From: an uncultured Aminicenantes bacterium
Lineage (GTDB): Bacteria; Acidobacteriota; Aminicenantia; UBA2199
Direction: 5' to 3'
Length of the DNA: 64,000 nt
Assembly: GCA_965195285.1 (NCBI GenBank)
Contig: CBDAFS010000039.1
Location: 17,022 to 81,021, forward strand
Each line of letters starts with the position of its first letter. Position 1 is the stretch's first letter. Below, in pieces: positions 12,974 through 64,000 of the stretch. The notes under the pieces are model-generated. The model ran no database searches and had not been told where the DNA came from. It saw only the letters and a list, made by a program, of their open reading frames with translations. A program made the translations under genes and the position numbers.

Positions 12974-13015
12974 GATTAATTGTCTAATTAAATAAGCTAT
13001 TCATCATTATCAAAA

Positions 13016-13966
13016 CTATATATCAATATTAAATAACTTCAACCACCTTCTTATGTATGAAGCGGTAAGCATTTTGGGCAATTTAGTCTTCTTAAACCGT
13101 GACGGAATAGGATTTGCATATAATTCCAATGATTCCCTTTTGATTATCTGCCTGATTTGTCTTAACAATTCCCGTGTTGTTCCTTTCTGAATTTCCTGAA
13201 AATAGAGAAAAGTAAGGTTTGCGCACATCATCTGATATCCGGAATAGTTCATTTTTTCAATAATGCAATTGTCACCTAATTCACAATTTAATTTCTTGTA
13301 GTAATCTATTGCACTGGCTATCATAAGAATACGATCCGCATTCATGCTTCTGCCATGAATCCGGTAAAAACCACCAATAAAAGGGAAATATTTAAAAGTC
13401 ACACCGGTTGCTGCTAAAATACTTAGCATGTACCTGTCTTCATTGGCTTTTAATTCAGCTTTAAATAAACCAAAATGTTTGAAAATATTTCTATTAAATA
13501 GTAATGAATGAATTGGAGTCGGATATGGTAACCAAAAATTATAATAATAAGGGAAAATATCATCAATTTTTCCAATATTCATAGACACAATCCTTTTAGA
13601 ATCATCAAATAGCCAATCAACCTCGCAATAGGTTATATCTGCATTCTGTTTTAGGGAAAATTCTATTTGCCTTGACAGTTTGTTTTTTTGTAAAAGATCA
13701 TCTGCATCAAGAAATTGAATATACTCACCTTTAGCAGCTTTAATTCCAGTATTTCTGGCTTCAGCAAGTCCGCAATTTTTCTGATTTATCAAACGAATCC
13801 TTTTGATGAACTTCTGGATAACAGGAAATGGATCATCAGTTGAACCGTCATTTACAACAATAATTTCAATATTGGAATAGGTTTGGTCTAAAACACTCTT
13901 TATTGCTTCTCCTATATATTTTCTCTGATTATACAGGGGAATAATAACACTTACTTTTGGTTTCAT
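13016..13966 (-). CDS. Glycosyltransferase family 2
   Basis: VSVIIPLYNQRKYIGEAIKSVLDQTY..IEIIVVNDGSTDD and a DAD-like motif (LDADD). GT-A fold. AT-rich gene. Confidence 0.8.
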   Translation of the reverse strand: MKPKVSVIIPLYNQRKYIGEAIKSVLDQTYSNIEIIVVNDGSTDDPFPVIQKFIKRIRLINQKNCGLAEARNTGIKAAKGEYIQFLDADDLLQKNKLSRQIEFSLKQNADITYCEVDWLFDDSKRIVSMNIGKIDDIFPYYYNFWLPYPTPIHSLLFNRNIFKHFGLFKAELKANEDRYMLSILAATGVTFKYFPFIGGFYRIHGRSMNADRILMIASAIDYYKKLNCELGDNCIIEKMNYSGYQMMCANLTFLYFQEIQKGTTRELLRQIRQIIKRESLELYANPIPSRFKKTKLPKMLTASYIRRWLKLFNIDI

Positions 13967-14057
13967 TTATGATATATCAATATCACTCAACAATTTCATT
14001 CATTCCTTAAATTAATAGACAATAACCAGAAATCATTTTAATTTTCGAGTAGTCTTA

Positions 14058-15117
14058 TCATTTATTGAGAGAAAATTTTGATCTTTTTAAAGCCTTCACA
14101 ATTTTATCAGTAAAAACTTTTAAAATATATTTTATTAGATTAATTTTTAATTCGATTGGCAATAAAAAAAAATCGGTTATCGATTTTTTAAACAGATTAT
14201 TCCTGAAATATAAATAAATATATTTATCTCGTTTATACTTTATGATATTTTTTATTTTTTTTTCTTTTAAACCAATTTTTTTTATCAAATTCGATTCTTT
14301 AGATAAGAGATTCTTATTAAATGTATCCAATAGAGTTAATATGTTTTTGAATATGTTAAAATTTTTTATATTCACATTGTCTAATTTCATATCCTTCAGA
14401 ACAGAATATTCATTGTTGGTGATTTTTTTGCCAATTATATCCTCAATTTTTTGTTTTGAAATTCTATTGGCTGAATTTATCTGCTGACATAAATATGTTG
14501 ACGACATATTAGATTTTGTTTCTCTCCAACTCACCAGCACTTTATTGATTTGAACTAATTTTGTTATTTTTGATAATCTTGTCCATAATTCATAATCCTG
14601 TGCTTTATCCATCCGCTCATCATACCCTCCGGAATTTATTACAATATCTTTACTGAAAAAAACCGTAGAATGTGCTATGCAATTCCCAAAATATAAAATA
14701 TAATACACTTCTTCCGGCGAAAATATTTTATCAAACCGTCCAACTCTTTTTCCGGCCACATCAATCACATCCGCCAAACTGAAAACAAATCCAATATCCT
14801 TATTGTTTTCTAAAAAATCATATTGCAATTTAAGTCGATCTTTCACAGAAATATCATCTGCATCCATTCGAACAATGTATTCACCTTTTGCCATCATTAA
14901 CCCTGTGTTTAATGATTTGGTTAAACCAATATTTCTCTCATTATTAATTATTTTAATTCTTAAGTCGCTGTAACTCTGCAATATTTCCGCAGTACTATCC
15001 GTAGAACCATCATTAATGATTATAAATTCGAAGTCTGTAAAAGTTTGCTCCAGGATACTATTAATGGCTTCTTTGAGAAAGCTCTCACAATTATAAACTG
15101 GCATTAAAACAGTAACT

Positions 15118-15146
<29 letters not shown>
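14058..15146 (-). CDS. Glycosyltransferase family 2
   Basis: VTVLMPVYNCESFLKEAINSILEQTFTDFEFIIINDGSTD and MDADD. 362 aa. Confidence 0.8.
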
Positions 15147-16985
<1,839 letters not shown>

Positions 16986-16986
<1 letters not shown>

Positions 16987-18833
16987 TAACTTTCCTTTTG
17001 TATAAGTTTTTTATCTTTTTTTCTTTTCTCCAAATACCATTCAAAAATTGGAGTATCAACTTGATTTATACTTCTATTAATATCACTATCACCACAAACA
17101 CCGTTAGGATACATACACTTACCTTTTTTTATATCTTCAAACAACTTTTGGGGAATATTTTCCCATATTTTATCAAAATTCTCTTTCTTTACATTACCCA
17201 TCTTCCGATCTTCACTTAATTTAAAATTACAGGGATAAACATCCCCGTTGGGAGCTAAATGGAAAAAAGTCTTACATGCATGGCATGGCATAATGCGTTT
17301 ATTTATTATTGAATCATAAAGATAACATGACTTAATATTTCCTTTATACTTTAAGAAATCTCCATGAACATCTTTAGTAAATTTAATTTTGTCAATACCA
17401 GTATAGCGTTCTAAAATAGGTATTAATTCAGAATTATTTTGAAAAACTAAATCTTCTTCTGTTGTACTAAAACGATCATTCATTACAGTCCAACATATAT
17501 GAACACCTAATCCTTTACTTTTGGCAAAATCTTGGACCCAATCGAAATACTCAACATTATCTCTAAGAAATGTAAAGCTAAAATCAACATTTGAAGAAAA
17601 TTCTTTCAATAATTCTGCCGTCCTTACAGTATTTTCAAAACTGCCATTTATACCCCTACTTTTATCATGTATTTTTTTAGGACCATTTAAACTTACACCA
17701 ATCAATGCCCATTTTAGATTGGGAGCAAGTGACTTTATTTTTTTAAAAAAATTATATGTCCTATCAGGATCATAGCCATTGGTCGTAATGCTAAACTTTG
17801 CTTTCTTTAATTTTTTATGAAGCGCTATCACTATTTCAGGAAAATCATTCCTCAATATTGGTTCTCCACCACTAAGAATCACTTCATTAACATCTTTTAA
17901 TAATTTATTATTTGTCAATTTATCTATATCATCAGAAGTAAGCTCCTCTTTTGGTAAGGTTTTATTCTTCCATATATTACAAGAAACGCATTTAAAATTA
18001 CACCGCCATGTCATTGTGTACCTAATACAAGTTATTGCGTCAAGCTTACTATCCTTAATTCTATCTTTTTGAAAAATTCTTTTTAATAACCTTTTTAATT
18101 TCTTCATTTTTGATACTATATTTTTCTGATTTTTTTTATTACCAATATCCTTTTCAAGAACACCCATCAAAATTGTGTGCCTGTTGTTCAGACAATCCTT
18201 TATCAGCACCTTTTCTCTCCAGTAAAAACCATATTTATTCATTAATTTTGAAATGCTAATAACATTAACTTTGTAGGGGTGCGCACTATCAGCATTTCTT
18301 TTCACTACCTTCCAAGAGGTGCCTGTATCCCCAATGTTTATCATAAACCACAATTCTCCGTCAGTTTTAAGAATATTAAAAATGGTATTGGTGGCAAGTT
18401 CGATATCTGAAACATGATCCAATACATTCCAACAGATAACAACATCAGCTTTAATATCAGTTTTATAGGTTTCTATTTCACTACAAATATATTTAACATT
18501 ATCATTAGAAAGATCCCACATTTTTTTATATTCATCTATAAGTGGATCTATTCCGATTGCAGTTGTATTGTTCAAATGGGAAATTACTGCGGTAGGTCCA
18601 CAACCAACCTCAATCACAACCTTATTTTTTAGGTCACTAATACTGCGATTTATATACATAAGACAGTATTTTCTGAAATAAATATTTGCAATTCTCCATT
18701 CATCAGGAGAGAATCCCTTCCATTCATTTTCCCTTATATTTGACCAAAAATCTAATTCTTCGATTTGTTTGGGTTTTAAACTACTTACATCCAATTCATC
18801 TCTAATTGTTTTTTGTTGCGATTTCTTCAGCAT
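16986..18833 (-). CDS. Methyltransferase / radical SAM (SPASM-type) fusion protein
   Basis: N-terminal VVIEVGCGPTAVISHL (SAM MTase fold). Then RCNFKCVSCNIW (CxxxCxxC radical-SAM cluster) and ILSGGEPIL. C-terminal Cys-rich SPASM-like segments (CHACKTFFHLAPNGDVYPCNF; KCMYPNGVCGD). 615 aa. Confidence 0.7.
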
Positions 18834-18868
18834 ACTTACCTCTTATTATTTTTTTGCTATCACAATAA

Positions 18869-20059
18869 TTATTTTACCTCATATAAAACCTTTAAAAAAT
18901 TTTTCCCTCTTGAATGGTCAATCCCTTTAAATTCTACAGGAATTCTCCACCAAAATAAATATCCAACTCTATTTTTGGACCATATTGCAATAATTATTTT
19001 CGTCATAGAATTATTGATTTGAATATTTTTTATTTCTATTTTTAAAGTATGTTTGCCTTTTTCTAAATTTATTTTTTTATTATATGCTTTATTAGTTGCC
19101 AGAAAATAAAGTGATCTCTCATTCCCACTGTAAATCCCAGTATCAATGTCTACATCCTCATAATCTATCCGAGATTTATATTTCATAGATATCGAAAAGG
19201 AATCGCCAGGGTATAATATTCTCTTGTCTATTTCGACATCAAAAAAGTTAATTTTTTCATTACCGCTACAAATTTTTTCTATACCTAAATCCCCTTTGCT
19301 AATAAATAAATTAGTATATTCCTTAATACCGTCTTCAACACGGTTAAAATATTTAGCCTTGCCATTGTTAAAAAAAATAACCTTTTCTGTAAAAGTTGAA
19401 ATTATGTGCATATTATGGGAGACTAATATAGCTGTTGTTCCATTTTTTTTGAGTTCGCCGATTTTATTGAAACATTTAATTTGAAACCCTTCATCCCCCA
19501 CCGCCAGCACCTCATCCACCAGCAGTATGTCTGGCTTGCAATGCACAGCCACAGCAAACCCCAGCCTCACAAACATCCCGCTTGAGTAAAACTTCACAGG
19601 CGTATCCAGAAAACCACCAATATCTGCGAACTCAACAATATCATCAAATTTTTTGTCCACCTCTTTTTTTGTCATTCCAAGAATTGCAGCATTTACATAA
19701 ATATTCTCTCTTCCAGTTAGCATGGGATGAAAACCAGCTCCTACTTCTATTAAAGCACCAACTCTTCCCTTAATGGTAATTTTGCCCTTGTCAGGCCAGA
19801 AAATTCCATTCAACATTTTTAACAGAGTTGTTTTACCGGAACCGTTCGGGCCAATAATCCCAAGCACTTCCCCCTTTTTTAATTCAAAAGAGACCTTTTT
19901 AACTGCCCAGAACTCATTTTTCCTTAAACTCTCGGGATGAGAACTCAAGCCTAAAATGTTCCTACCTATATCGGCTATGCCGTAAAGCATAGATCGTTTT
20001 AACGATTTACAATATTTTTTTGCCACATTCTCAACATTTACAGCCAAAATGTTATTCAT
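18869..20059 (-). CDS. wzt: Polysaccharide ABC exporter ATP-binding protein (Wzt/KpsT/TagH-like) with extended C-terminal putative carbohydrate-binding domain
   Basis: Walker A GIIGPNGSGKTT. Signature YSSGMFVRLGFAVA. Walker B ILLVDEVLAVGD. An extra ~150-aa C-terminal domain as in Wzt proteins. Confidence 0.8.
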   Translation of the reverse strand: MNNILAVNVENVAKKYCKSLKRSMLYGIADIGRNILGLSSHPESLRKNEFWAVKKVSFELKKGEVLGIIGPNGSGKTTLLKMLNGIFWPDKGKITIKGRVGALIEVGAGFHPMLTGRENIYVNAAILGMTKKEVDKKFDDIVEFADIGGFLDTPVKFYSSGMFVRLGFAVAVHCKPDILLVDEVLAVGDEGFQIKCFNKIGELKKNGTTAILVSHNMHIISTFTEKVIFFNNGKAKYFNRVEDGIKEYTNLFISKGDLGIEKICSGNEKINFFDVEIDKRILYPGDSFSISMKYKSRIDYEDVDIDTGIYSGNERSLYFLATNKAYNKKINLEKGKHTLKIEIKNIQINNSMTKIIIAIWSKNRVGYLFWWRIPVEFKGIDHSRGKNFLKVLYEVK

Positions 20060-20060
20060 C

Positions 20061-20909
20061 TTAAATTCTCTCTGCTACCCTGGTTTCGGTCAGGTGAAAA
20101 ACAAATAAGCAAAAAATAAAAACAAAAAAAGAAATAATAACGGAAACCCAAAAACCTGGCCATTCCTTCGAGTATCCGGTTAATATAAGATCCCTTGGCA
20201 CTGAAACAAGATAAAATAATGGATTATATTTTGTTATTTGAGCCAGAATCCCGGTGGTTGGCTTTGGATATAAGATGGGTGTTAAAAACATAAAAAACGT
20301 CATTAATATTGAAATAATATTTCCAATATCTCTCAAAATACCATTCAAAATTGATAGAATAAAACCAAGGCCAAGGGTTAAGATAAAGACTGGGAGTATA
20401 AGAATCGGAAATAAACATATGGCTGCATGTGGGGAATAACCATAAAATAAAAAAAGAATTCCTGCCAGAACAAATTGAATAAGGAAAGATACCAGTGATT
20501 GACCTATTGAAGCAATTACCAGTGATTTTTTTGAAAAGTTTATTTTTACAATCATCGATCCGGCCTTCACCAATGAATTTGAACCTGCAATAAGTCCTGA
20601 GGCAAACACCTGCCATATAGCAATTCCTAACACCGCAAAAATAGGATAGGGTACATCAATTTTCCCAAGGTTGAATATACCAGACCGATTAAGCATAATA
20701 AAAGTTCCTACACTAATAAGAGGAATTACAAAAGCCCATAAAACCCCGATAAATGATTGTTTATATATGCCCAGGAAATCTCTTTTAAAAAGTTGATAGA
20801 TTAACCAACGGCTTAGTTTTATTTCAGAAACAATCTCTTTAAAAATACAAAAATACCCATTCTTTAAAATATTGTCAGGTTCATATGTCTTTAATTTATT
20901 ATTATTCAT
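20061..20909 (-). CDS. wzm: ABC-2 type polysaccharide exporter permease (Wzm-like)
   Basis: 282 aa, 6 predicted TM segments. Immediately upstream of the Wzt NBD gene. Confidence 0.75.
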   Translation of the reverse strand: MNNNKLKTYEPDNILKNGYFCIFKEIVSEIKLSRWLIYQLFKRDFLGIYKQSFIGVLWAFVIPLISVGTFIMLNRSGIFNLGKIDVPYPIFAVLGIAIWQVFASGLIAGSNSLVKAGSMIVKINFSKKSLVIASIGQSLVSFLIQFVLAGILFLFYGYSPHAAICLFPILILPVFILTLGLGFILSILNGILRDIGNIISILMTFFMFLTPILYPKPTTGILAQITKYNPLFYLVSVPRDLILTGYSKEWPGFWVSVIISFFVFIFCLFVFHLTETRVAERI

Positions 20910-20965
20910 TAAATTTTAAACTTAGCTTTATATAAATACAGGTTTGTAAAAAAAATATAATCATT

Positions 20966-21916
20966 TTATTTTACTCTACTTTTTAACATAAAAAAATCAA
21001 CTAGATTTGTTATTGCACACTGTCCCATTGCCTCTATGGCTTCTTCAGTATGCCCTCCTATATGAGGAGTACAAATAAGATTTTCTGATTCCAAAAACTC
21101 TTTGTCTTCTGGAGGTTCCATTTCATAAACATCAATGGCTGAGCCAGCAATAATTCCATTTTTTAAAGCCCATTTTAAATCATCCTGTATTACAATTTCT
21201 CCTCGAGCAGTATTTATTAAAAAAGCCGATTTTTTCATTGTTTTCAACATGTTTTTATTAACCATATTTCTAGTTAGCTCTGTCAAGGGAGTATGTATTG
21301 TCACTATATCAGCTCTACTAAATATCTGTTCTTTAGAATATTCAATTAATCCTTTCTCTTTGTAATAATTATCTTGGTTTATGATATCATTCACTAATAT
21401 TTTGCATTTAAAATATTTTAATAACTCCACAATATCCTTCCCAATATTGCCAACCCCAATAATTCCGATTGTTTTCCCGGTCAACTCGTGACCACCCTTC
21501 CGGTTCCACCGCCCTTCTCTGAGCTCATCCGATGCCTGATAAAAATCTCTCATGAGGCAAATCATGAATCCCAGGGTAAGCTCGGCAACTGACCTCCGGT
21601 TAACACCCTTGGAAAACAAAACATCTACTCCATAATCTCGACAGGCCCGAAAATCAATATTATCCAGTCCGACTCCGTATTTTGATAAGACTTTTATTTT
21701 AGAAGAATTCCGTAATATATTTTCATCTATTCTCTCACGTCCAATGATTGAACCATCCAAATCCTGTAAAAAATCGATTAAATCATTTTTATCCAGCGGG
21801 TATTTGGTTTTATTTAATCTGATCTCGGCAAAATCATGTTTTTCAATTGCTTTTACCAGAAATGGATTCTGGGTAAAAGCAAAAGGTGTGATCCCAATTC
21901 TAATTTTATTTATCAT
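20966..21916 (-). CDS. D-isomer-specific 2-hydroxyacid dehydrogenase family protein
   Basis: NAD-binding GIIGVGNIGKDI. Catalytic-region motifs (NTARG, HIGG). 316 aa. AT-rich. Confidence 0.75.
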   Translation of the reverse strand: MINKIRIGITPFAFTQNPFLVKAIEKHDFAEIRLNKTKYPLDKNDLIDFLQDLDGSIIGRERIDENILRNSSKIKVLSKYGVGLDNIDFRACRDYGVDVLFSKGVNRRSVAELTLGFMICLMRDFYQASDELREGRWNRKGGHELTGKTIGIIGVGNIGKDIVELLKYFKCKILVNDIINQDNYYKEKGLIEYSKEQIFSRADIVTIHTPLTELTRNMVNKNMLKTMKKSAFLINTARGEIVIQDDLKWALKNGIIAGSAIDVYEMEPPEDKEFLESENLICTPHIGGHTEEAIEAMGQCAITNLVDFFMLKSRVK

Positions 21917-22056
21917 TTAAACAATAAGCTACCGCCGCTGATAGTTTGCATACCTACAAATAATATCACGATAGCATCAATAATAAATCACTTTCAATAT
22001 AGCATATCTGGTTTTTTTTTCAAGAGACTGGTTCAGTGGGAAACAGGCTCGGCAGG

Positions 22057-56693: not shown

Positions 56694-57698
56694 TTACCAT
56701 AAATCACCTATAACATTAGCAAAAGCAATCATTCCATTTTTTGCGGATGATGTCTTTAAAGAATTAAGACTCTCAATAGCTTCACTAGTATTAACTTTAA
56801 TAATTCTTTTACATTGATCAATCGAACCGGAATCTTTGATTATCTCAAAACATTTTTTCAGACTTTTTTCATTATTTTTTTTACGTTTAAAAGTCTTTAA
56901 TAAAAAATTTCTATCTTTTTCATTGGCAAGTTGTAAAGCCATTATAAATGGTAATCTCATTTTTTTCTGTTTTATATCTCCTCCTAATTGTTTTCCAATG
57001 AGTCTTACATTTCCAATAATTTCAAGAACATCATCTTTGATTTGGAAAGCAACTCCCAAAAATTTACCATAAGTAGAGATTGAATTAATTTCCTTAATAT
57101 TTCCTCCCCCAAGAATTGCTCCAATTTTCAAACTGCATATGATCAATGAAGCTGTGGTTTTTGAAATCATTTCCATATATTGCTTTTCAGTGATGTTCTG
57201 ATTGTATTCAAAATCTAAATCAAGAAACTGACCTATATATAATTCTTTATATGTTTCTTTTAATGTTTCTTCTGATTTTAATATCCTATTAACAGGAATC
57301 TTATCATTTGAATACAATTCAGACATTGCAGCATGTGCAACGCTATTTAGGATTTCACCTATTATTACTGCTTTTTTTGCACCATGAGCAGAATAAACTG
57401 ATATAACTCCTCCTCTCAAGGATGATTCATCTAGAAAATCATCAATAATTAAAGTAGAAAAATGAAAAAGTTCAACAGCAATTGCTGCTGGTAGAATTAT
57501 GTTATATTCACCTCCAACAGATTCACAGGCTAATTTCATCAAGAAGGGTCTTTCTCTATGTCCTTTAGGCTTTAATGCAAATTCAATTATCTTTTTTATT
57601 TTAATTTTTTGAATATTTAAAAACTTGAAAATTTCATCATCAATTATTTTACTATTCTCTTTAAATATTCTATTGATAGATTGGTGTAAATTTATCAT
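56694..57698 (-). CDS. Polyprenyl diphosphate synthase (trans-isoprenyl diphosphate synthase)
   Basis: First Asp-rich motif LIIDDFLDE (DDxxD). Second motif FQIKDDVLE. 334 aa. Very AT-rich gene. Confidence 0.7.
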   Translation of the reverse strand: MINLHQSINRIFKENSKIIDDEIFKFLNIQKIKIKKIIEFALKPKGHRERPFLMKLACESVGGEYNIILPAAIAVELFHFSTLIIDDFLDESSLRGGVISVYSAHGAKKAVIIGEILNSVAHAAMSELYSNDKIPVNRILKSEETLKETYKELYIGQFLDLDFEYNQNITEKQYMEMISKTTASLIICSLKIGAILGGGNIKEINSISTYGKFLGVAFQIKDDVLEIIGNVRLIGKQLGGDIKQKKMRLPFIMALQLANEKDRNFLLKTFKRKKNNEKSLKKCFEIIKDSGSIDQCKRIIKVNTSEAIESLNSLKTSSAKNGMIAFANVIGDLW

Positions 57699-57904
57699 AA
57701 TGAAGAATATAATCTAAATCAATCAACTTCATATTTAATTTCAGATTCTGGCCTTTTTTTAGAGTTCTTAATTTTAAATAAAAACCTTTTTTTCATTAGA
57801 TCAAAAAGCTTTTTTGTTTTCAAATGTTTTTTTAAGATACGCTTAGTTGGCTTTTCTCCGAGAACCAATTGTGCCATTCAAATTCCTCCATATCCATATT
57901 AATA

Positions 57905-58699
57905 CTAATATTGAATATACTGCAATTTCTCAAATGTTTCAATTTGAGTTGAATAACTCCCTGCTTTCGTTTTTCCTGCAGTAATCACTAATTTTACTTT
58001 ATTCTTTAATTCAAAATCCTTCTTAAGATCAATTGTTGAAATTGCTAATATATCATCTGCTAAAGCAAAATCTCTAATTTCAATATTATTATTGAGTACA
58101 TCTTTTCTATTACAAACTTTTAAAGTTATATTAGCTTCTTTGGAATTTTGCCCGAGCAGACTTTTCTCTAACTTTTTGTATGTAATTGTCTCATTAGTAG
58201 GTATTATATATCGTGTTTTTTTGATATCTTTTACTTTTAAGAGATTATTATATTCTTTTAGATGTTCGTTATATTTATACCAATCACTTAGATGAATTGT
58301 ATAGGTGGTTTCCCATTTTTTTTCTGCGAAATATAATCCACTAATCAAAAATTTTATATACTCCTCACATGTTACATTAAAAGGAATTTCAATTTCATTT
58401 CCTTTTAAAGCTGAATTCAGTATTGTGAATATTATAATTTTTGACTTTGTTAATGCACTTATATTACATTCTTTTAATACTTTGAGTAGATTGGGGCAGA
58501 TATTTTTATATTCCAAAATAAATGAAGTAGTGAAGTAAGAAACAATAGCTATACTTATGAGGCCAAGATAATAATATAAAAGTTTTGAGATAGAGCTATC
58601 ATCAGGTGTGTTTATAATTACATCAAAAATAAATGTTATAAGTAATGAAAAAAATATCGAAAATAGAATATTTGAAGTATTTTTTAATTTATCTTTCAT
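57905..58699 (-). CDS. Hypothetical membrane protein (2 N-terminal TM segments plus soluble domain)
   Basis: 264 aa, AT-rich, no recognisable motifs. Confidence 0.4.
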   Translation of the reverse strand: MKDKLKNTSNILFSIFFSLLITFIFDVIINTPDDSSISKLLYYYLGLISIAIVSYFTTSFILEYKNICPNLLKVLKECNISALTKSKIIIFTILNSALKGNEIEIPFNVTCEEYIKFLISGLYFAEKKWETTYTIHLSDWYKYNEHLKEYNNLLKVKDIKKTRYIIPTNETITYKKLEKSLLGQNSKEANITLKVCNRKDVLNNNIEIRDFALADDILAISTIDLKKDFELKNKVKLVITAGKTKAGSYSTQIETFEKLQYIQY

Positions 58700-58716
58700 A
58701 ATTATTATTGGTTATA

Positions 58717-59841
58717 TTATTCATATATTTGAAACTTCCCACCCCTTACAATTTTGATTACAGCTTGTTGAATCACATCACCATTTTTATCAAATGTTGT
58801 ATCACCAACAATTCCTGGATAATGCTTTACTGTATATATATAATTTTTAATACTTTCCGCAGTTAATTCAGCATTTGATTCTAATATCGCCAATGATATA
58901 ATCTTAATAGCATCATAACTCAAGGCAGCAAAAATATCTGGTTCCACATTATATTTATCTACATATTTTTTTACAAATTTTTTGATATTATGGGCATTAC
59001 TTTTTGGATCATAAGTTCGAGCTGAATATATAACACCTTCGGCAGAATCACCTGCAATCTTAAGAATCTCAGGATCCTCAAACATCACAGTGCTTAAAAA
59101 CTGTTTGTTAATGTCAAGCTCTCTTGATTGTCTAAGTAATTGCGCTAGTTCTTTATAGCCGATAATATAGATTGCATCTGGATTATACTTTTTTATTTTA
59201 GATAATTGTAAACGAAAATCTGTAGTTCCTTGATCAAAAGTTTCTGAAATCAAGATTTCTCCGCCTAATTTTATATAATTTGTGGTAAATACATCTTTTA
59301 TTCCTAAGCCATAGTCATTATTTACATAAAGAATAGCAACTTTTTCCAATTTCATTTTTCTAATTGAAAATTCAGCCATAATATTCCCTTCAAAAATATC
59401 AGATGCACAATTTCGAAAAATATAATCACCAGCATTAGTTATTTCAGGTGCAGAAGATGTTGGAGAAAGTAATACAACTTTGTTTTTATTCAAAATTGGC
59501 GATACTGCCAAAGTCACACTACTGAACAAACCACCAATTATAACTGGTACATTATGTGTTGATATCAACATTTGAACTGCTAAAACACCTGTTTTTGGAT
59601 CACCTTTTGAATCTTCAAAAATTACTTCGATTTTTTTCTTAGTACTTTTTTTTTCATTTATTTCATCAATAGCAAGATTAATAGCATTTTTTGCTGTTTC
59701 CCCATATTTAGCACCATCTCCAGTTAAAGGCATAATAGCGCCAATCTTTATTACAGTTTCCTCTTTTATTGGTTTACAACTTTGAGCACAAATAATCAAC
59801 AATACTAAACAGACTGCTAATGAATAATTTTTTTTACTCAT
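58717..59841 (-). CDS. Lipoprotein, type-I periplasmic binding protein (LivK/branched-chain amino acid binding family)
   Basis: Lipobox LLIICAQSC. IKIGAIMPLTGDGAKYGE..VPVIIGGLFSSV is typical of Leu/Ile/Val-binding SBPs. AT-rich, unlike livFGMH. Confidence 0.7.
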   Translation of the reverse strand: MSKKNYSLAVCLVLLIICAQSCKPIKEETVIKIGAIMPLTGDGAKYGETAKNAINLAIDEINEKKSTKKKIEVIFEDSKGDPKTGVLAVQMLISTHNVPVIIGGLFSSVTLAVSPILNKNKVVLLSPTSSAPEITNAGDYIFRNCASDIFEGNIMAEFSIRKMKLEKVAILYVNNDYGLGIKDVFTTNYIKLGGEILISETFDQGTTDFRLQLSKIKKYNPDAIYIIGYKELAQLLRQSRELDINKQFLSTVMFEDPEILKIAGDSAEGVIYSARTYDPKSNAHNIKKFVKKYVDKYNVEPDIFAALSYDAIKIISLAILESNAELTAESIKNYIYTVKHYPGIVGDTTFDKNGDVIQQAVIKIVRGGKFQIYE

Positions 59842-60081
59842 AAAAACCTCCCAACAACCTTAATTATAAAATTAATTAAATCAAATTCAAAAAAAAAAGT
59901 CAAATTGAAAAAAGTATTTTCATAAATTAATATACATAAACATTTAAATAAGAAGAATTGAATAAATTCGATTTAAAATCCCAATTCAAATATTGACAAA
60001 AAAAAAGAATTTATTAATAATACAAATGGGATACAGAATTTATTTCTTATAGTTAAAATTAGTTTTTTCAAAATAAAACAA

Positions 60082-61314
60082 ATGTATTACATAGAACTAT
60101 TTTCAGGTGCCGGTGGATTATCCGAAGGTTTCATAAAAGCAGGGTTTAAACCAATAGCCCATATTGAGATGGATAAAAATTCATGTTGTACATTAAAAAC
60201 CAGACATGCTTATCACTATTTAAAAAAAAAGAGGAAACTGGATATATATCAATCCTATTTAAAAAAAGAAATATCACGCGAAGATTTGTATTCAACAATC
60301 CCTGATGATTTAATTGAATCAATTATAGAGACAGAAATTACAGAAAATAATCTAAAACTTATTTTCAATAAAATAAAATATTTTCAAAAAAGTAAAAGTA
60401 TATCAGATATTGATTTAATTATTGGGGGCCCTCCCTGTCAGGCATATTCAACCATTGGAAGAGCAGCAACAAAAAACAAAAAGTCTTTTGACCTTAGAAA
60501 TTATTTGTATCAACTATACGGTCGTTTTTTATTGGAATTCAAACCAAAATTATTCTTATTTGAAAATGTACCGGGTATAAAAACAGCAGGAAATGGTCAG
60601 TATTATTGTAGTTTGAAGGACGAATTCAGAAATTTTGGATATGAAATTGAAGATAGAATGCAAAATGCTGCAGATTATGGCGTCATACAGAGAAGAGAAA
60701 GAGTTATCATAATTGGCTGGCGGAAGGATATACAGTTTAGATATCCTGAATTTGAGAATATTGAGAATAAATGGACGGTTAAGGATATATTATTCGATTT
60801 ACCTGAATTGAAAGCTGGAGAATCAATTAATATTGGAAAGTATATAAGTAAACCATCTGAATATATAAAAATGTTCAATATCCGTAATGGAAGTGATATT
60901 TTGACCCAACATATAGCTAGACCTCATAATAAAAAAGATTTAAGAATTTATAAACTGGCAATTGAAAAGTGGAACAAAAACCATAAGAGAATAATGAATT
61001 TCGAAATTCCAGACAAAATTAGAACCCAGAAAAACATTTCATCATTCCTTGATCGATTTAAAGTTGTATCAAAAGATGATTTATCACATACATTAATAGC
61101 TCATATAGCAAAAGATGGACATCATTATATTCATCCGGATATTGAACAGTTAAGATCTATTAGTATTAGGGAAGCAGCAAGGATCCAATCTTTCGAAGAT
61201 AATTACTATTTTGAAGGCCCAAGAACTTCTATTTTTAATCAAATTGGAAATGCAGTCCCTCCACTCTTGTCCTATGCTATTGCTTCAAAAATAAGGGATA
61301 TTATAAATGTCTAA
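60082..61314 (+). CDS. DNA (cytosine-5)-methyltransferase
   Basis: Motif I ELFSGAGGL. Motif IV GGPPCQAYS. Motif VI LFENVPG. Motif X QIGNAVPP. Variable TRD in between. 410 aa. Confidence 0.85.
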   Translation: MYYIELFSGAGGLSEGFIKAGFKPIAHIEMDKNSCCTLKTRHAYHYLKKKRKLDIYQSYLKKEISREDLYSTIPDDLIESIIETEITENNLKLIFNKIKYFQKSKSISDIDLIIGGPPCQAYSTIGRAATKNKKSFDLRNYLYQLYGRFLLEFKPKLFLFENVPGIKTAGNGQYYCSLKDEFRNFGYEIEDRMQNAADYGVIQRRERVIIIGWRKDIQFRYPEFENIENKWTVKDILFDLPELKAGESINIGKYISKPSEYIKMFNIRNGSDILTQHIARPHNKKDLRIYKLAIEKWNKNHKRIMNFEIPDKIRTQKNISSFLDRFKVVSKDDLSHTLIAHIAKDGHHYIHPDIEQLRSISIREAARIQSFEDNYYFEGPRTSIFNQIGNAVPPLLSYAIASKIRDIINV

Positions 61315-63403
61315 AGAGCTAGCTTTTAAGCCCAAGGCAAGATTATTGTTACAATTAGGTGAACAACTAATCCGTAATGAAAGCATAGCACTTATGGAAA
61401 TTATCAAAAATTCATATGATGCTGATGCCTCTAAAGTATCAATATCCATGAAAAATGTTGATGACACAAAAAAAGGTGAAATAATCATTGAAGATAATGG
61501 TATCGGAATGGATGAAAGAATTATAGAAGATGTATGGATGCAACCAGGAAGTAATTATAAATCATCATTATTTGAAAAAAGAGTTAGAACCGTAAAATAT
61601 AAAAGATTACCAATAGGAGAAAAGGGAATTGGAAGATTTGGGGTACACCGTCTGGGTCAGGAAATTGAGATAATCAGCAAGAAAGAAGGTAAAAATGAAG
61701 TTTATTTAAAAATTAATTGGAGTAAATTTGAGAAAGATGACTTTTTGTCAAATATAAAAGTAAATTTATTTGAAAGACTACCTCAATATTTTCTTAAGGG
61801 AAATACAGGTACTAAAATAATAATTAATAAACTACGAAAATCCTGGAGTCGTATTGAAGTGAGAGAATTATATAGATCAATAAACACTTTGAATTCCCCT
61901 TTTAAATCATATGACTCTTTCGAAGTTGACTTTTCAATTGATAAAAAGAAATGGTTAGAAGGACTTCTTTCATTTGATGATATAAAAAAATATGCCCTTT
62001 ATTATTCCATAGCCTCTATTGAAGGAAATGAAATCAAAGATTTCAAGTATGAATTCCGTCCCTGGGATACAATGGTAAAACTAAATGAAAGGAAAGTTGA
62101 AGATAAGCATATCAGGATGGTAAAAAAGATTTATGATGAAGAAAAAAGAAAAAATGTTTATGTTGATATTGATCTAAATAAATCTAAAATAGGAAAGATA
62201 AGTTTTGAGATTTTAATTTTCGATAGGGAAAGAAGAATATTATCTTTAGGAGTTACCGATAGAAAAGGATTTGATGAATACCTAAATGAAAATGGTGGTA
62301 TAAGGGTTTTCAGGGATGGAATTAGAATATATGATTATGGTGAAAAAAGTAATGATTGGCTTGACCTTGACATAAAAAGAGTTAATCGACCCGGGGAAAC
62401 AATTAGTAATAATCTTGTTATGGGTGCAGTCTATCTTGATCGAGAAAGTAGTACTGATTTAGTTGAAAAAACAAATAGAGAAGGTTTCATTGAAAATAAT
62501 GCGCTATCTGAATTTATATTGGCTATTGATTTTGCTTTAAACAATATTTTGACATATAGAAGTATTGATAAAAATAAAGTCAGAACAATATATAGTAATA
62601 TTGATACAAATGAACCTGTTACTGAAAATTTGCGAGAACTGAAGAACAAAATAGAAAAAAATATTGAAAAAGGGGAATTTAAAAAGGAACTATTAAAAAC
62701 AATAAAAAACATTGATAAAGATTACAAATATATAAAAGAGATTTATGTAAAAAGCGCTAGTGCTGGTTTAAGTCTTAGTATTGTCATCCACGAAGTTGAA
62801 AAAATTTTAGCAGAATTGGTAAAAATAGTAGAAGCAACAGGATCAAGAGAAAGAATAAAATTTCTAGTAAACCACCTCGATAAAATTGTTAATGATTATG
62901 CAACCATAATTAAACAAAGCAAAAAGGAAAAAAGTAATCTAAAATCTCTCATCGATCAATCTCTTTTCAATTTAACCTATAGGATTAAGGCACATAATCT
63001 GAACGTAATCAGATCTTACGAAAAATATAAAGAAAATCCAGTTGTTACATGCGCACAAAATTTGGTAATAAGCGTAATCATGAATATCATTGATAATTCA
63101 ATCTTCTGGATAAATTATGCAAATAGACAAGTAAAAAAACTATATATCACATTAACCGATGAAATACCGGAACATACTTCAATATTAATTGCAGATAATG
63201 GTCCGGGATTTCATATTTCTCCAGAAGACGCAATAAAGCCCTTTATAACGGAAAAACCAGGAGGTATGGGGCTAGGATTACATCTCGCAGATGAAGTTAT
63301 GAATGCACAGGGCGGAAAACTATTATTTCCTGAAAAATTTGATTTCAAGCTACCAGTAGACCTTCAAAATGGTGCAAAAATTTTACTAGCTTTTAAAAAT
63401 TAA
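61307..63403 (+). CDS. Dual-GHKL ATPase protein: N-terminal MutL/MORC-like Bergerat domain plus C-terminal histidine-kinase-like ATPase domain
   Basis: N-terminal EIIKNSYDADA / IEDNGIGMD / GEKGIGRFG. C-terminal NIIDNSIFW / IADNGPGF / GGMGLGLHLADEV. Possible H-box SIVIHEVEKIL before the C-terminal domain. Start overlaps the MTase stop (ATGTCTAA). Confidence 0.65.
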   Translation: MSKELAFKPKARLLLQLGEQLIRNESIALMEIIKNSYDADASKVSISMKNVDDTKKGEIIIEDNGIGMDERIIEDVWMQPGSNYKSSLFEKRVRTVKYKRLPIGEKGIGRFGVHRLGQEIEIISKKEGKNEVYLKINWSKFEKDDFLSNIKVNLFERLPQYFLKGNTGTKIIINKLRKSWSRIEVRELYRSINTLNSPFKSYDSFEVDFSIDKKKWLEGLLSFDDIKKYALYYSIASIEGNEIKDFKYEFRPWDTMVKLNERKVEDKHIRMVKKIYDEEKRKNVYVDIDLNKSKIGKISFEILIFDRERRILSLGVTDRKGFDEYLNENGGIRVFRDGIRIYDYGEKSNDWLDLDIKRVNRPGETISNNLVMGAVYLDRESSTDLVEKTNREGFIENNALSEFILAIDFALNNILTYRSIDKNKVRTIYSNIDTNEPVTENLRELKNKIEKNIEKGEFKKELLKTIKNIDKDYKYIKEIYVKSASAGLSLSIVIHEVEKILAELVKIVEATGSRERIKFLVNHLDKIVNDYATIIKQSKKEKSNLKSLIDQSLFNLTYRIKAHNLNVIRSYEKYKENPVVTCAQNLVISVIMNIIDNSIFWINYANRQVKKLYITLTDEIPEHTSILIADNGPGFHISPEDAIKPFITEKPGGMGLGLHLADEVMNAQGGKLLFPEKFDFKLPVDLQNGAKILLAFKN

Positions 63404-63421
63404 ATAGGGGGTACAATATTG

Positions 63422-64000
63422 ATGTATCATATTGATATACCTAAGAATGGATCCGTAGTAATTATAGATGATAAAATCAAAGAAGTTATACCTTTATTTA
63501 ATATACTTTCAAAAGCTGGAATTTCCTTTACTTATTATTCAGGTACTGATCTTGAAGAATTACCTGAAAAACCTATCCAAACGATAAGGGCAGTTTTTCT
63601 TGATATTCAATTAATACCTGCTTTAAATGCTCATAGCTATTCACAAATGGCTCTAAATTTGCTTGAAAAAATTATTCCAGACGATAATGGTCCTTATATT
63701 CTGTTAATCTGGAGTACAAATCAAAGGCAATATGCAGAAACACTTGAAGCACAGATTATAGGCCCTAATTATTCAAGAAGACCAGCAATAATAATACATT
63801 TAGATAAAATAGATTATTTTAAACAAGAAATACTACAAAAAAATAGTAACACACAAGAAGTGAAATTTATCCCTAAATCTGATGCATTTAAATCTATCAC
63901 AAAAAAAATAAATTCTGAATTAGAAAAGGTTAAGGTTTTCCACCTTTTCACCTTATGGTCCGATATAATAAATAATTCTGCAAATGAACATGTAAACAAT
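63422..64000 (+). CDS. Receiver (REC)-domain protein, partial (continues past window end)
   Basis: Hand translation: MYHIDIPKNGSVVIIDDKIKEVIPLF..IRAVFLDIQLIPALN. Acidic DD pocket and an LDIQLP-type phospho-acceptor motif. AGGGGG Shine-Dalgarno site 10 nt upstream. No stop before 64000. Confidence 0.5.
   Translation, partial: MYHIDIPKNGSVVIIDDKIKEVIPLFNILSKAGISFTYYSGTDLEELPEKPIQTIRAVFLDIQLIPALNAHSYSQMALNLLEKIIPDDNGPYILLIWSTNQRQYAETLEAQIIGPNYSRRPAIIIHLDKIDYFKQEILQKNSNTQEVKFIPKSDAFKSITKKINSELEKVKVFHLFTLWSDIINNSANEHVNN

Follow-up and report, generated by a model that had tools for sequence, protein, structure and literature searches.

What could be achieved by a cytosine methylase whose gene runs into that of a protein with two ATPase modules, itself followed by the gene of a receiver-like protein? 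The question is raised by one end of a stretch of 64,000 nucleotides from an uncultured Aminicenantes bacterium (assembly GCA_965195285.1, contig CBDAFS010000039.1, positions 17,022 to 81,021), hereafter the window, in which a C5-cytosine DNA methyltransferase (MTase), a kinase-like protein termed GHKL2 and a third protein termed X are encoded in succession. An earlier note, made from the sequence letters without database searches, had proposed this trio as a candidate undescribed defence or epigenetic signalling system. The locus belongs to an already published class and is not a new discovery; the label "undescribed" fails on a ground for refutation that the note itself had named, the same trio having been published computationally in 2021 (PMC8011034). 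As far as sequence can tell, it is best read as a methylation-marked, phosphorelay-gated restriction or abortive-infection (Abi) system, and on balance it is probably a defence operon that tells self from non-self by methylation, was acquired horizontally and belongs to the two-component-like paraMORC class.

A Translationally Coupled Trio

The MTase, the dual GHKL protein and X are translationally coupled, and this coupling is kept in hundreds of species. The MTase stop overlaps the start of the 698-aa open reading frame (ORF) by 8 nt (ATGTCTAA at 61307-61314), the ATG of the latter falling within the last codons of the MTase ORF, as was found both in the ORF listing and by direct reading. 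The X ORF begins 18 nt past the kinase stop, where a Shine-Dalgarno-like stretch, AGGGGG, precedes its start at 63422, and runs off the window end.

The first gene product is a Dcm-type MTase, with Pfam and TIGR00675 matches (Table 1) and with the motifs FSGAGG, PPCQ, ENV, and GNAVPP, plus QRRER, readable in its translation. The partner MTases of related loci form one clade with a mean identity of 50% to that of the window, the partner MTase from Kordiimonas being 53% identical. Between motifs VIII and IX, C5 methylases have a variable stretch that carries the target-recognition domain, and this stretch measures 142-150 aa in 51 of 57 loci. The MTase also matches the DrmMII and MTase_II models of PADLOC, one DrmMII model at 1.5e-164, given which automatic annotation could label the locus a partial DISARM. 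DISARM class 2, in which DrmMII is accompanied by the DrmA helicase, DrmB (DUF1998) and DrmC/DrmE, was rejected: the MTase alone matches a DISARM model, the other four genes of the completed operon (see below) have no Drm match, and the three genes upstream, in a Pfam scan only, encode a polyprenyl synthetase, a protein without a hit and a periplasmic binding protein.

In GHKL2, a MORC/MutL-type ATPase module and a complete class-I histidine-kinase core are joined in one polypeptide. The ATPase module (~aa 1-390) has the Bergerat-fold motifs I-III and, behind them, the S5-fold transducer domain by which MORC/MutL-type GHKL ATPases are defined; it is followed by a helical DHp region with an H-box at His495-Glu496 and by a CA domain (aa ~540-698). 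The motifs MEIIKNSYDA, DNGIGM, GIGRFG, NIIDNS, DNGPGF, and GGMGLGLHL are all present and both modules are matched by Pfam (Table 1). The C-terminal 150-180 residues match many NCBIfam sensor-kinase models, while the N-terminal 180 aa match the NCBIfam model of the BbrUII/HgiDII restriction enzymes at 1.6e-25, under the cut-off, as well as the PADLOC REase_II model. Apart from the GHKL N-terminus, no part of GHKL2 or X is covered by a PADLOC model, and weak PADLOC matches to MzaB, REase_II and CARF were set aside as domain-level or chance. When 82 kinase homologues are aligned, 81-82 of them have the same residue at every ATPase, H-box, N, G1, and G2 position, with Glu31, Asn35, Asp38, Asp63, the Gly motifs and His495 present in all 82.

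X has neither a Pfam, NCBIfam nor PADLOC assignment, and Pfam Response_reg matched none of the family members tried. A structure model built from 27 homologues (pLDDT, the predicted local distance difference test, 84.7) lays the protein out as a receiver (aa ~10-130), three long linker helices and a beta-rich C-terminal domain (aa ~280-435). Foldseek matches of the model to StyR (4e-4), AmiR, FixJ, and PorX support a receiver fold, and the N-terminus of X, as modelled, is a true one. Among 71 homologues from genomes, Asp61 and Lys129 are kept in all, Asp16 in 70, Ser/Thr98 (Ser98 here) in 69, and Asp17 in 67. These alignments show strict purifying selection on both ATP sites, on the H-box His and on the receiver residues. 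The gene coordinates, the Dcm-type MTase, the two Bergerat-fold modules (MutL/MORC-like and sensor-kinase-like), the possible H-box and the downstream receiver ORF had all been read from the letters in the earlier note, and each of these readings is borne out.

Regarding its output, X has no DNA-binding or other known output domain. Its C-terminal domain bears a signature of Cys344 (71/71), Asp345, Lys350, Arg354, and Arg435, described as invariant, and clustering of the protein at 50% identity gives 2088 representatives, each of which has this architecture over its full length. The model tentatively suggests an output domain of MazF/CcdB-like fold, the resemblance being in fold alone: X has no Pfam PemK_toxin or CcdB match, a profile of 71 X C-termini found nothing relevant among PDB sequences, an hhalign comparison of these C-termini with an approximate, unverified E. 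coli MazF sequence gave nothing, and a Foldseek search of X against the PDB was swamped by receiver domains, MazF not being among the matches listed. Should the fold be right, the three-gene core could be a phosphorelay-triggered toxin of the Abi kind, in which the MazF/CcdB-like domain, as an RNase or gyrase poison, would bring the cell to arrest on detection of invading DNA by the MORC-kinase, a downstream HNH nuclease being an add-on. We regard this as unlikely, because X lacks any sequence-level tie to MazF, PemK or CcdB, MazF is missing from the Foldseek list, and self-marking by a constitutive MTase fits restriction more typically than it fits Abi systems.

The Operon Beyond the Window

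A 40.8-kb Logan contig (L001), found by exact look-up of the 698-aa protein, shares 4109 nt with the window without a single mismatch (window position = L001 position + 59891) and completes the operon. Five genes are present, encoding the MTase, the MORC-like ATPase/kinase fusion, the receiver protein X, an HNH_2 nuclease and a short MutY/Mig-type glycosylase, and their junctions consist of overlaps of 8, 4, and 4 nt and one gap of 18 nt.

The HNH_2 protein (257 aa; Pfam HNH_2 3.9e-13), whose gene overlaps that of X by 4 nt, matches PADLOC R-M-type (restriction-modification) HNH models at 3e-93, almost end to end, and at 4.6e-48, and it is likely the DNA-cleaving partner in the subclade of the window. 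The statement in the earlier note that no nuclease is visible is correct within the window and fails just past its end, where this gene lies; its suggestion that the effector might be a further downstream gene agrees with the nuclease and the glycosylase that follow X.

The last gene overlaps the HNH gene by 4 nt and encodes an HhH-GPD protein of 212 aa, in which the HhH motif and an iron-sulfur loop of the form C-x6-C-x2-C-x5-C are present and the MutY C-terminal domain is absent. Its NCBIfam mutY score (148.9) is under the equivalog cut-off (286.5), as is its nth score, and it matches at 9.5e-41 a REBASE-derived PADLOC model named "Type II nicking endonuclease". By analogy with Mig.MthI-type enzymes, it can be read as a T:G-mismatch glycosylase compensating for 5-methylcytosine deamination, the role of Vsr in related loci.

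Distribution, Neighbourhood, and Co-Evolution

In a scan of one genome per species (~186,000 species genomes), relatives of the kinase were found in at least 551 species genomes; the matches listed include Bacteroidota, Bacillota, Pseudomonadota, Planctomycetota, Verrucomicrobiota, Spirochaetota, lineages of the Candidate Phyla Radiation, and methanogenic and thaumarchaeal Archaea, and the nearest among them are ~60% identical. For 81 loci (genome contigs plus contigs L001 and L002), genes were annotated by our own ORF calls and by jackhmmer and hidden Markov model searches. The co-conservation of the trio, proposed in the earlier note as a check, is seen in these loci: the MTase lies directly upstream of the kinase in 63 and X directly downstream of it in 71, mostly overlapping it by 1-8 nt. 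Over 57 loci, the pairwise identities of kinase and X are correlated at r = 0.83, and those of MTase and kinase only weakly at r = 0.22. The view that an orphan Dcm stands beside an unrelated two-component system by chance, to which the latter value alone would lend support, is barely credible given the 8-nt start/stop overlap, the recurrence of the upstream MTase across phyla and the single clade formed by the partner MTases, and the conserved gene neighbourhood excludes it.

What follows X is variable. Among 65 evaluable loci, the operon ends at X in 30, continues with Vsr or Mig alone in 9, with HNH_2 in 12 (the window and its closest relatives, 58-60% identical among the matches listed, included) and with some other gene in 14. 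Vsr or Mig alone, or nothing, thus comes after X in 39 of the 65, which suggests that in many cases nothing beyond the three-gene core is needed to make up the system.

These gene contents bear on two other explanations. As E. coli MutL stimulates Vsr, the MutL/MORC-like ATPase might aid Vsr or Mig in very-short-patch T:G repair, with the phosphorelay signalling damage. Such methylation-coupled repair is highly unlikely: Vsr/Mig is absent from ~40% of the loci while GHKL2 and X are constant, Vsr commonly accompanies C5 methylases anyway, and the loci reside in defence islands or mobile elements alongside HNH and other nucleases. It could also be supposed that the MTase, the HNH_2 enzyme and the V-gene glycosylase form an ordinary Type II-like R-M system, of which the kinase and receiver only time or tune the expression; a regulatory role was proposed in PMC8011034, and the HNH protein and the MTase match R-M-type HNH and MTase_II models of PADLOC. 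This too we consider quite unlikely. Three points argue that the pair does more than regulate transcription for a separate R-M system: X lacks a DNA-binding output domain, most loci have no other nuclease, and the pair is coupled translationally behind the methylase; judging from these features, the kinase-X pair is more likely the restriction/effector machinery itself.

The system is also carried by conjugative plasmids. A distant version (32% identity) is found on the conjugative Rhizobium gallicum plasmid pRgalIE4872a (NZ_CP017102.1), in the order kinase-X-...-dcm-vsr-type II restriction endonuclease followed by an opposite-strand HNH gene, the methylase thus being downstream; PGAP names the pair "ATP-binding protein" and "hypothetical protein". 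In an uncultured Cenarchaeum metagenome-assembled genome (OY282369.1), three kinase-like genes lie on one chromosome, one at locus L076 and two at locus L083, which also bears split X-like fragments and an X-like ORF of 923 aa, suggesting that the module was duplicated and rearranged in Thaumarchaeota. A phage origin was rejected: the sole near-full-length matches among phage records are two short unannotated faecal contigs, and the other three matches cover <=25% of the query, within its N-terminal GHKL part.

Proposed Mechanism and Its Significance

The strict conservation of the ATPase sites, the His and the receiver residues, together with the co-evolution of kinase and X, argues for a working His-Asp relay. 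In the defence operon that we favour, the C5-MTase would mark host DNA, and the GHKL+S5 module, which occupies the usual sensor position of a kinase, would be an ATP-driven DNA clamp that reports DNA which is unmethylated or foreign, the MTase perhaps being its specificity subunit. The clamp signal would lead to autophosphorylation of His495 and to transfer to Asp61 of X, the C-terminal domain of which would be the output; in the subclade of the window, phospho-X would also license the downstream HNH_2 nuclease to cut DNA. The short glycosylase, in the place of Vsr, would repair the T:G mismatches that arise from 5-methylcytosine deamination. A restriction or defence role of the architecture is likely on this evidence. 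Regarding the phase-variable switch that had also been suggested for the locus, nothing looked at points to phase variation, the coding sequences not having been searched for repeats.

A bolder form of the proposal holds that the methylase, the MORC-kinase and X make up a self-contained immune system, in which a methylation-reading clamp triggers a His-Asp relay that switches on an unrecognised MazF/CcdB-like effector, with HNH and other nucleases being optional; it may be entertained as a possibility, though a doubtful one. Several points weigh against the defence reading. Nothing indicates which component reads DNA sequence or methylation state, and a physical MTase-kinase complex is not implied, because the identities of these two proteins are so weakly correlated. 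The counts for related loci are approximate, coming from crude longest-ORF calls, and a literature search turned up no experimental study of the trio.

The class is widespread (at least 551 species in Bacteria and Archaea, and ~2,000 X clusters) and known so far from computation. Were the mechanism true, two-component signalling would be joined to restriction-modification, and the class would provide a prokaryotic model for MORC-type ATPases that read DNA methylation, with a bearing on eukaryotic MORC biology. Were the MazF/CcdB-like effector real as well, the trio would be the first anti-phage system that is both phosphorelay-gated and epigenetically marked, and one present in Bacteria as well as Archaea. 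New here are the full five-gene operon, the near-invariant phosphorelay residues, the kinase-receiver co-evolution, the signs that the three-gene core often stands alone, and the tentative MazF-like output fold.

Genomic Setting and Other Features

The operon lies in a low-GC island, as had been estimated by eye, the GC content being 0.25-0.30 between ~56.6 kb and the end of the window and ~0.40 over most of the rest. Once extended on L001, the whole island measures ~9.5 kb; after the operon comes a convergent C69 peptidase gene, where GC is back to 0.39-0.49, and then genes for a Dak2/DegV protein and a glycosyltransferase. Upstream, the island is shared by the minus-strand genes at 56694-59841, which encode the polyprenyl synthetase, a 264-aa protein without a Pfam match and a Pfam Peripla_BP_6 binding protein, the last adjoining branched-chain amino-acid permease genes of normal GC. 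The AT-rich intergenic region before the operon contains A-runs and a consensus-only promoter match (Table 1), the count of sigma-70-like sites in the region not being above shuffled expectation. No tRNA was found in the 64-kb window.

Table 1. Operon features on the plus strand of the window.
Feature	Coordinates	Strand	Size	Matches and remarks
Sigma-70-like promoter match, TTGACA-17-AATAAT	59993..60021	+		11/12, consensus only; ~60 nt upstream of the MTase start, AT-rich intergenic; = L001 102-130
C5-cytosine DNA methyltransferase	60082..61314	+	410 aa	Pfam DNA_methylase 2.4e-60; TIGR00675 dcm 2.8e-50, above cut-off
GHKL2, kinase-like protein	61307..63403	+	698 aa	Pfam HATPase_c_3 aa 27-152 (4.7e-22), HATPase_c aa 586-674 (4.5e-16)
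Protein X	63422..64000	+	442 aa	First 193 codons in the window; ends at window-equivalent 64750 (L001 3531-4859)

Elsewhere in the window, a second low-GC island (13000-22000, minus strand, GC 0.27-0.35) has the look of an ordinary variable glycan locus: its surface-polysaccharide cluster encodes two GT2 glycosyltransferases, an S-adenosylmethionine-dependent (SAM) methyltransferase/GT2 fusion, a methyltransferase-radical-SAM-SPASM protein of 615 aa, a 2-hydroxyacid dehydrogenase and a pair of ABC-2 (Wzm/Wzt-like) exporter proteins. At 15118-15801 on the minus strand, a 227-aa epimerase/dehydratase ORF matches the GDP_Man_Dehyd profile at positions 90-331 only; the NAD-binding part at the N-terminus is missing, so the ORF may be a pseudogene that was truncated or frameshifted.

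Comparison With Known Systems

With the MazF, PemK, and CcdB toxins X shares no detectable sequence similarity, having instead its invariant Cys-Asp..Lys..Arg signature. The 212-aa HhH-GPD protein resembles the Mig.MthI-type glycosylases and "V" genes of REBASE in being short and in having the last place in a C5-MTase operon. In Shedu type I-D/paraMORC3 (VcSduA; PMC12137116) and in BbrUII/HgiDII, an N-terminal GHKL ATPase likewise governs a nuclease with an anti-phage or restriction role, and VcSduA requires its ATPase glutamate (PMC12137116). However, these are single polypeptides with a fused PD-(D/E)xK nuclease and without a kinase core or receiver, so that only the GHKL module is shared.

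The paraMORC ATPases of R-M operons (Iyer, Abhiman & Aravind, 2008; PMC2292703) have in common with the window operon the GHKL+S5 architecture, the linkage to cytosine methylase, Vsr, and HNH, and a sporadic, laterally mobile distribution. Among them, paraMORC1, which has a conserved C-terminal extension and co-occurs with HNH, is likened to GHKL2 by its description; in contrast, neither a histidine-kinase core nor a receiver partner appears in that paper, and no SF-II helicase is found in the window operon.

The closest likeness is to the system described by comparative genomics only in Bellieny-Rabelo, Pretorius & Moleleki (2021; PMC8011034). Taking as their starting point a two-HATPase-domain protein of Pectobacterium and the protein encoded next to it, these authors defined the Pfam families HEF_HK (PF19191), with a DHp-like H-box, and Response_reg_2 (PF19192), found the two genes linked in 91.6% of 644 regions, traced their descent to the paraMORC ATPases of Iyer et al. 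(2008), and speculated that the pair regulates R-M systems. The dominant kinase architecture was HATPase_c_3 + HEF_HK + HATPase_c, with C5 methylases upstream, HNH_2 as the best-represented nearby nuclease and Vsr often downstream (PMC8011034). In DefensePredictor (2026), a machine-learning study, HATPase+REC figures merely as an unvalidated prediction. PF19191 and PF19192 gave no match at E<=1 for the window proteins or for the Kordiimonas, Rhizobium, Leyella, and Flavobacterium members, the models being seemingly missing or ineffective in the Pfam copy used, and class membership was judged by homology in their place. A Kordiimonas "sensor histidine kinase" (P0116) is 53% identical to the window kinase over 100% of its length, its neighbour matches X at 2e-54 with 33% identity, the HNH domains of the two operons are 33% identical, and the Kordiimonas locus has the order Vsr-MTase-kinase-X-HNH_2-integrase. 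A Kordiimonas lacus protein is a representative in PMC8011034; P0116 is not confirmed as the published locus tag KORLAC_RS15945, which makes this a genus-level match.

By this homology, the locus belongs to the published in-silico class as a somewhat divergent member, with ~60% identity to its nearest kinases and a Mig-type glycosylase gene where related loci often have Vsr. Like the published system, it combines a soluble kinase of HATPase_c_3, DHp-like H-box and HATPase_c with an adjacent receiver-like protein that has the acidic pair, Asp, Ser/Thr, and Lys and no known output domain, with a C5-MTase upstream, and with HNH_2 and a deamination-repair V gene nearby.

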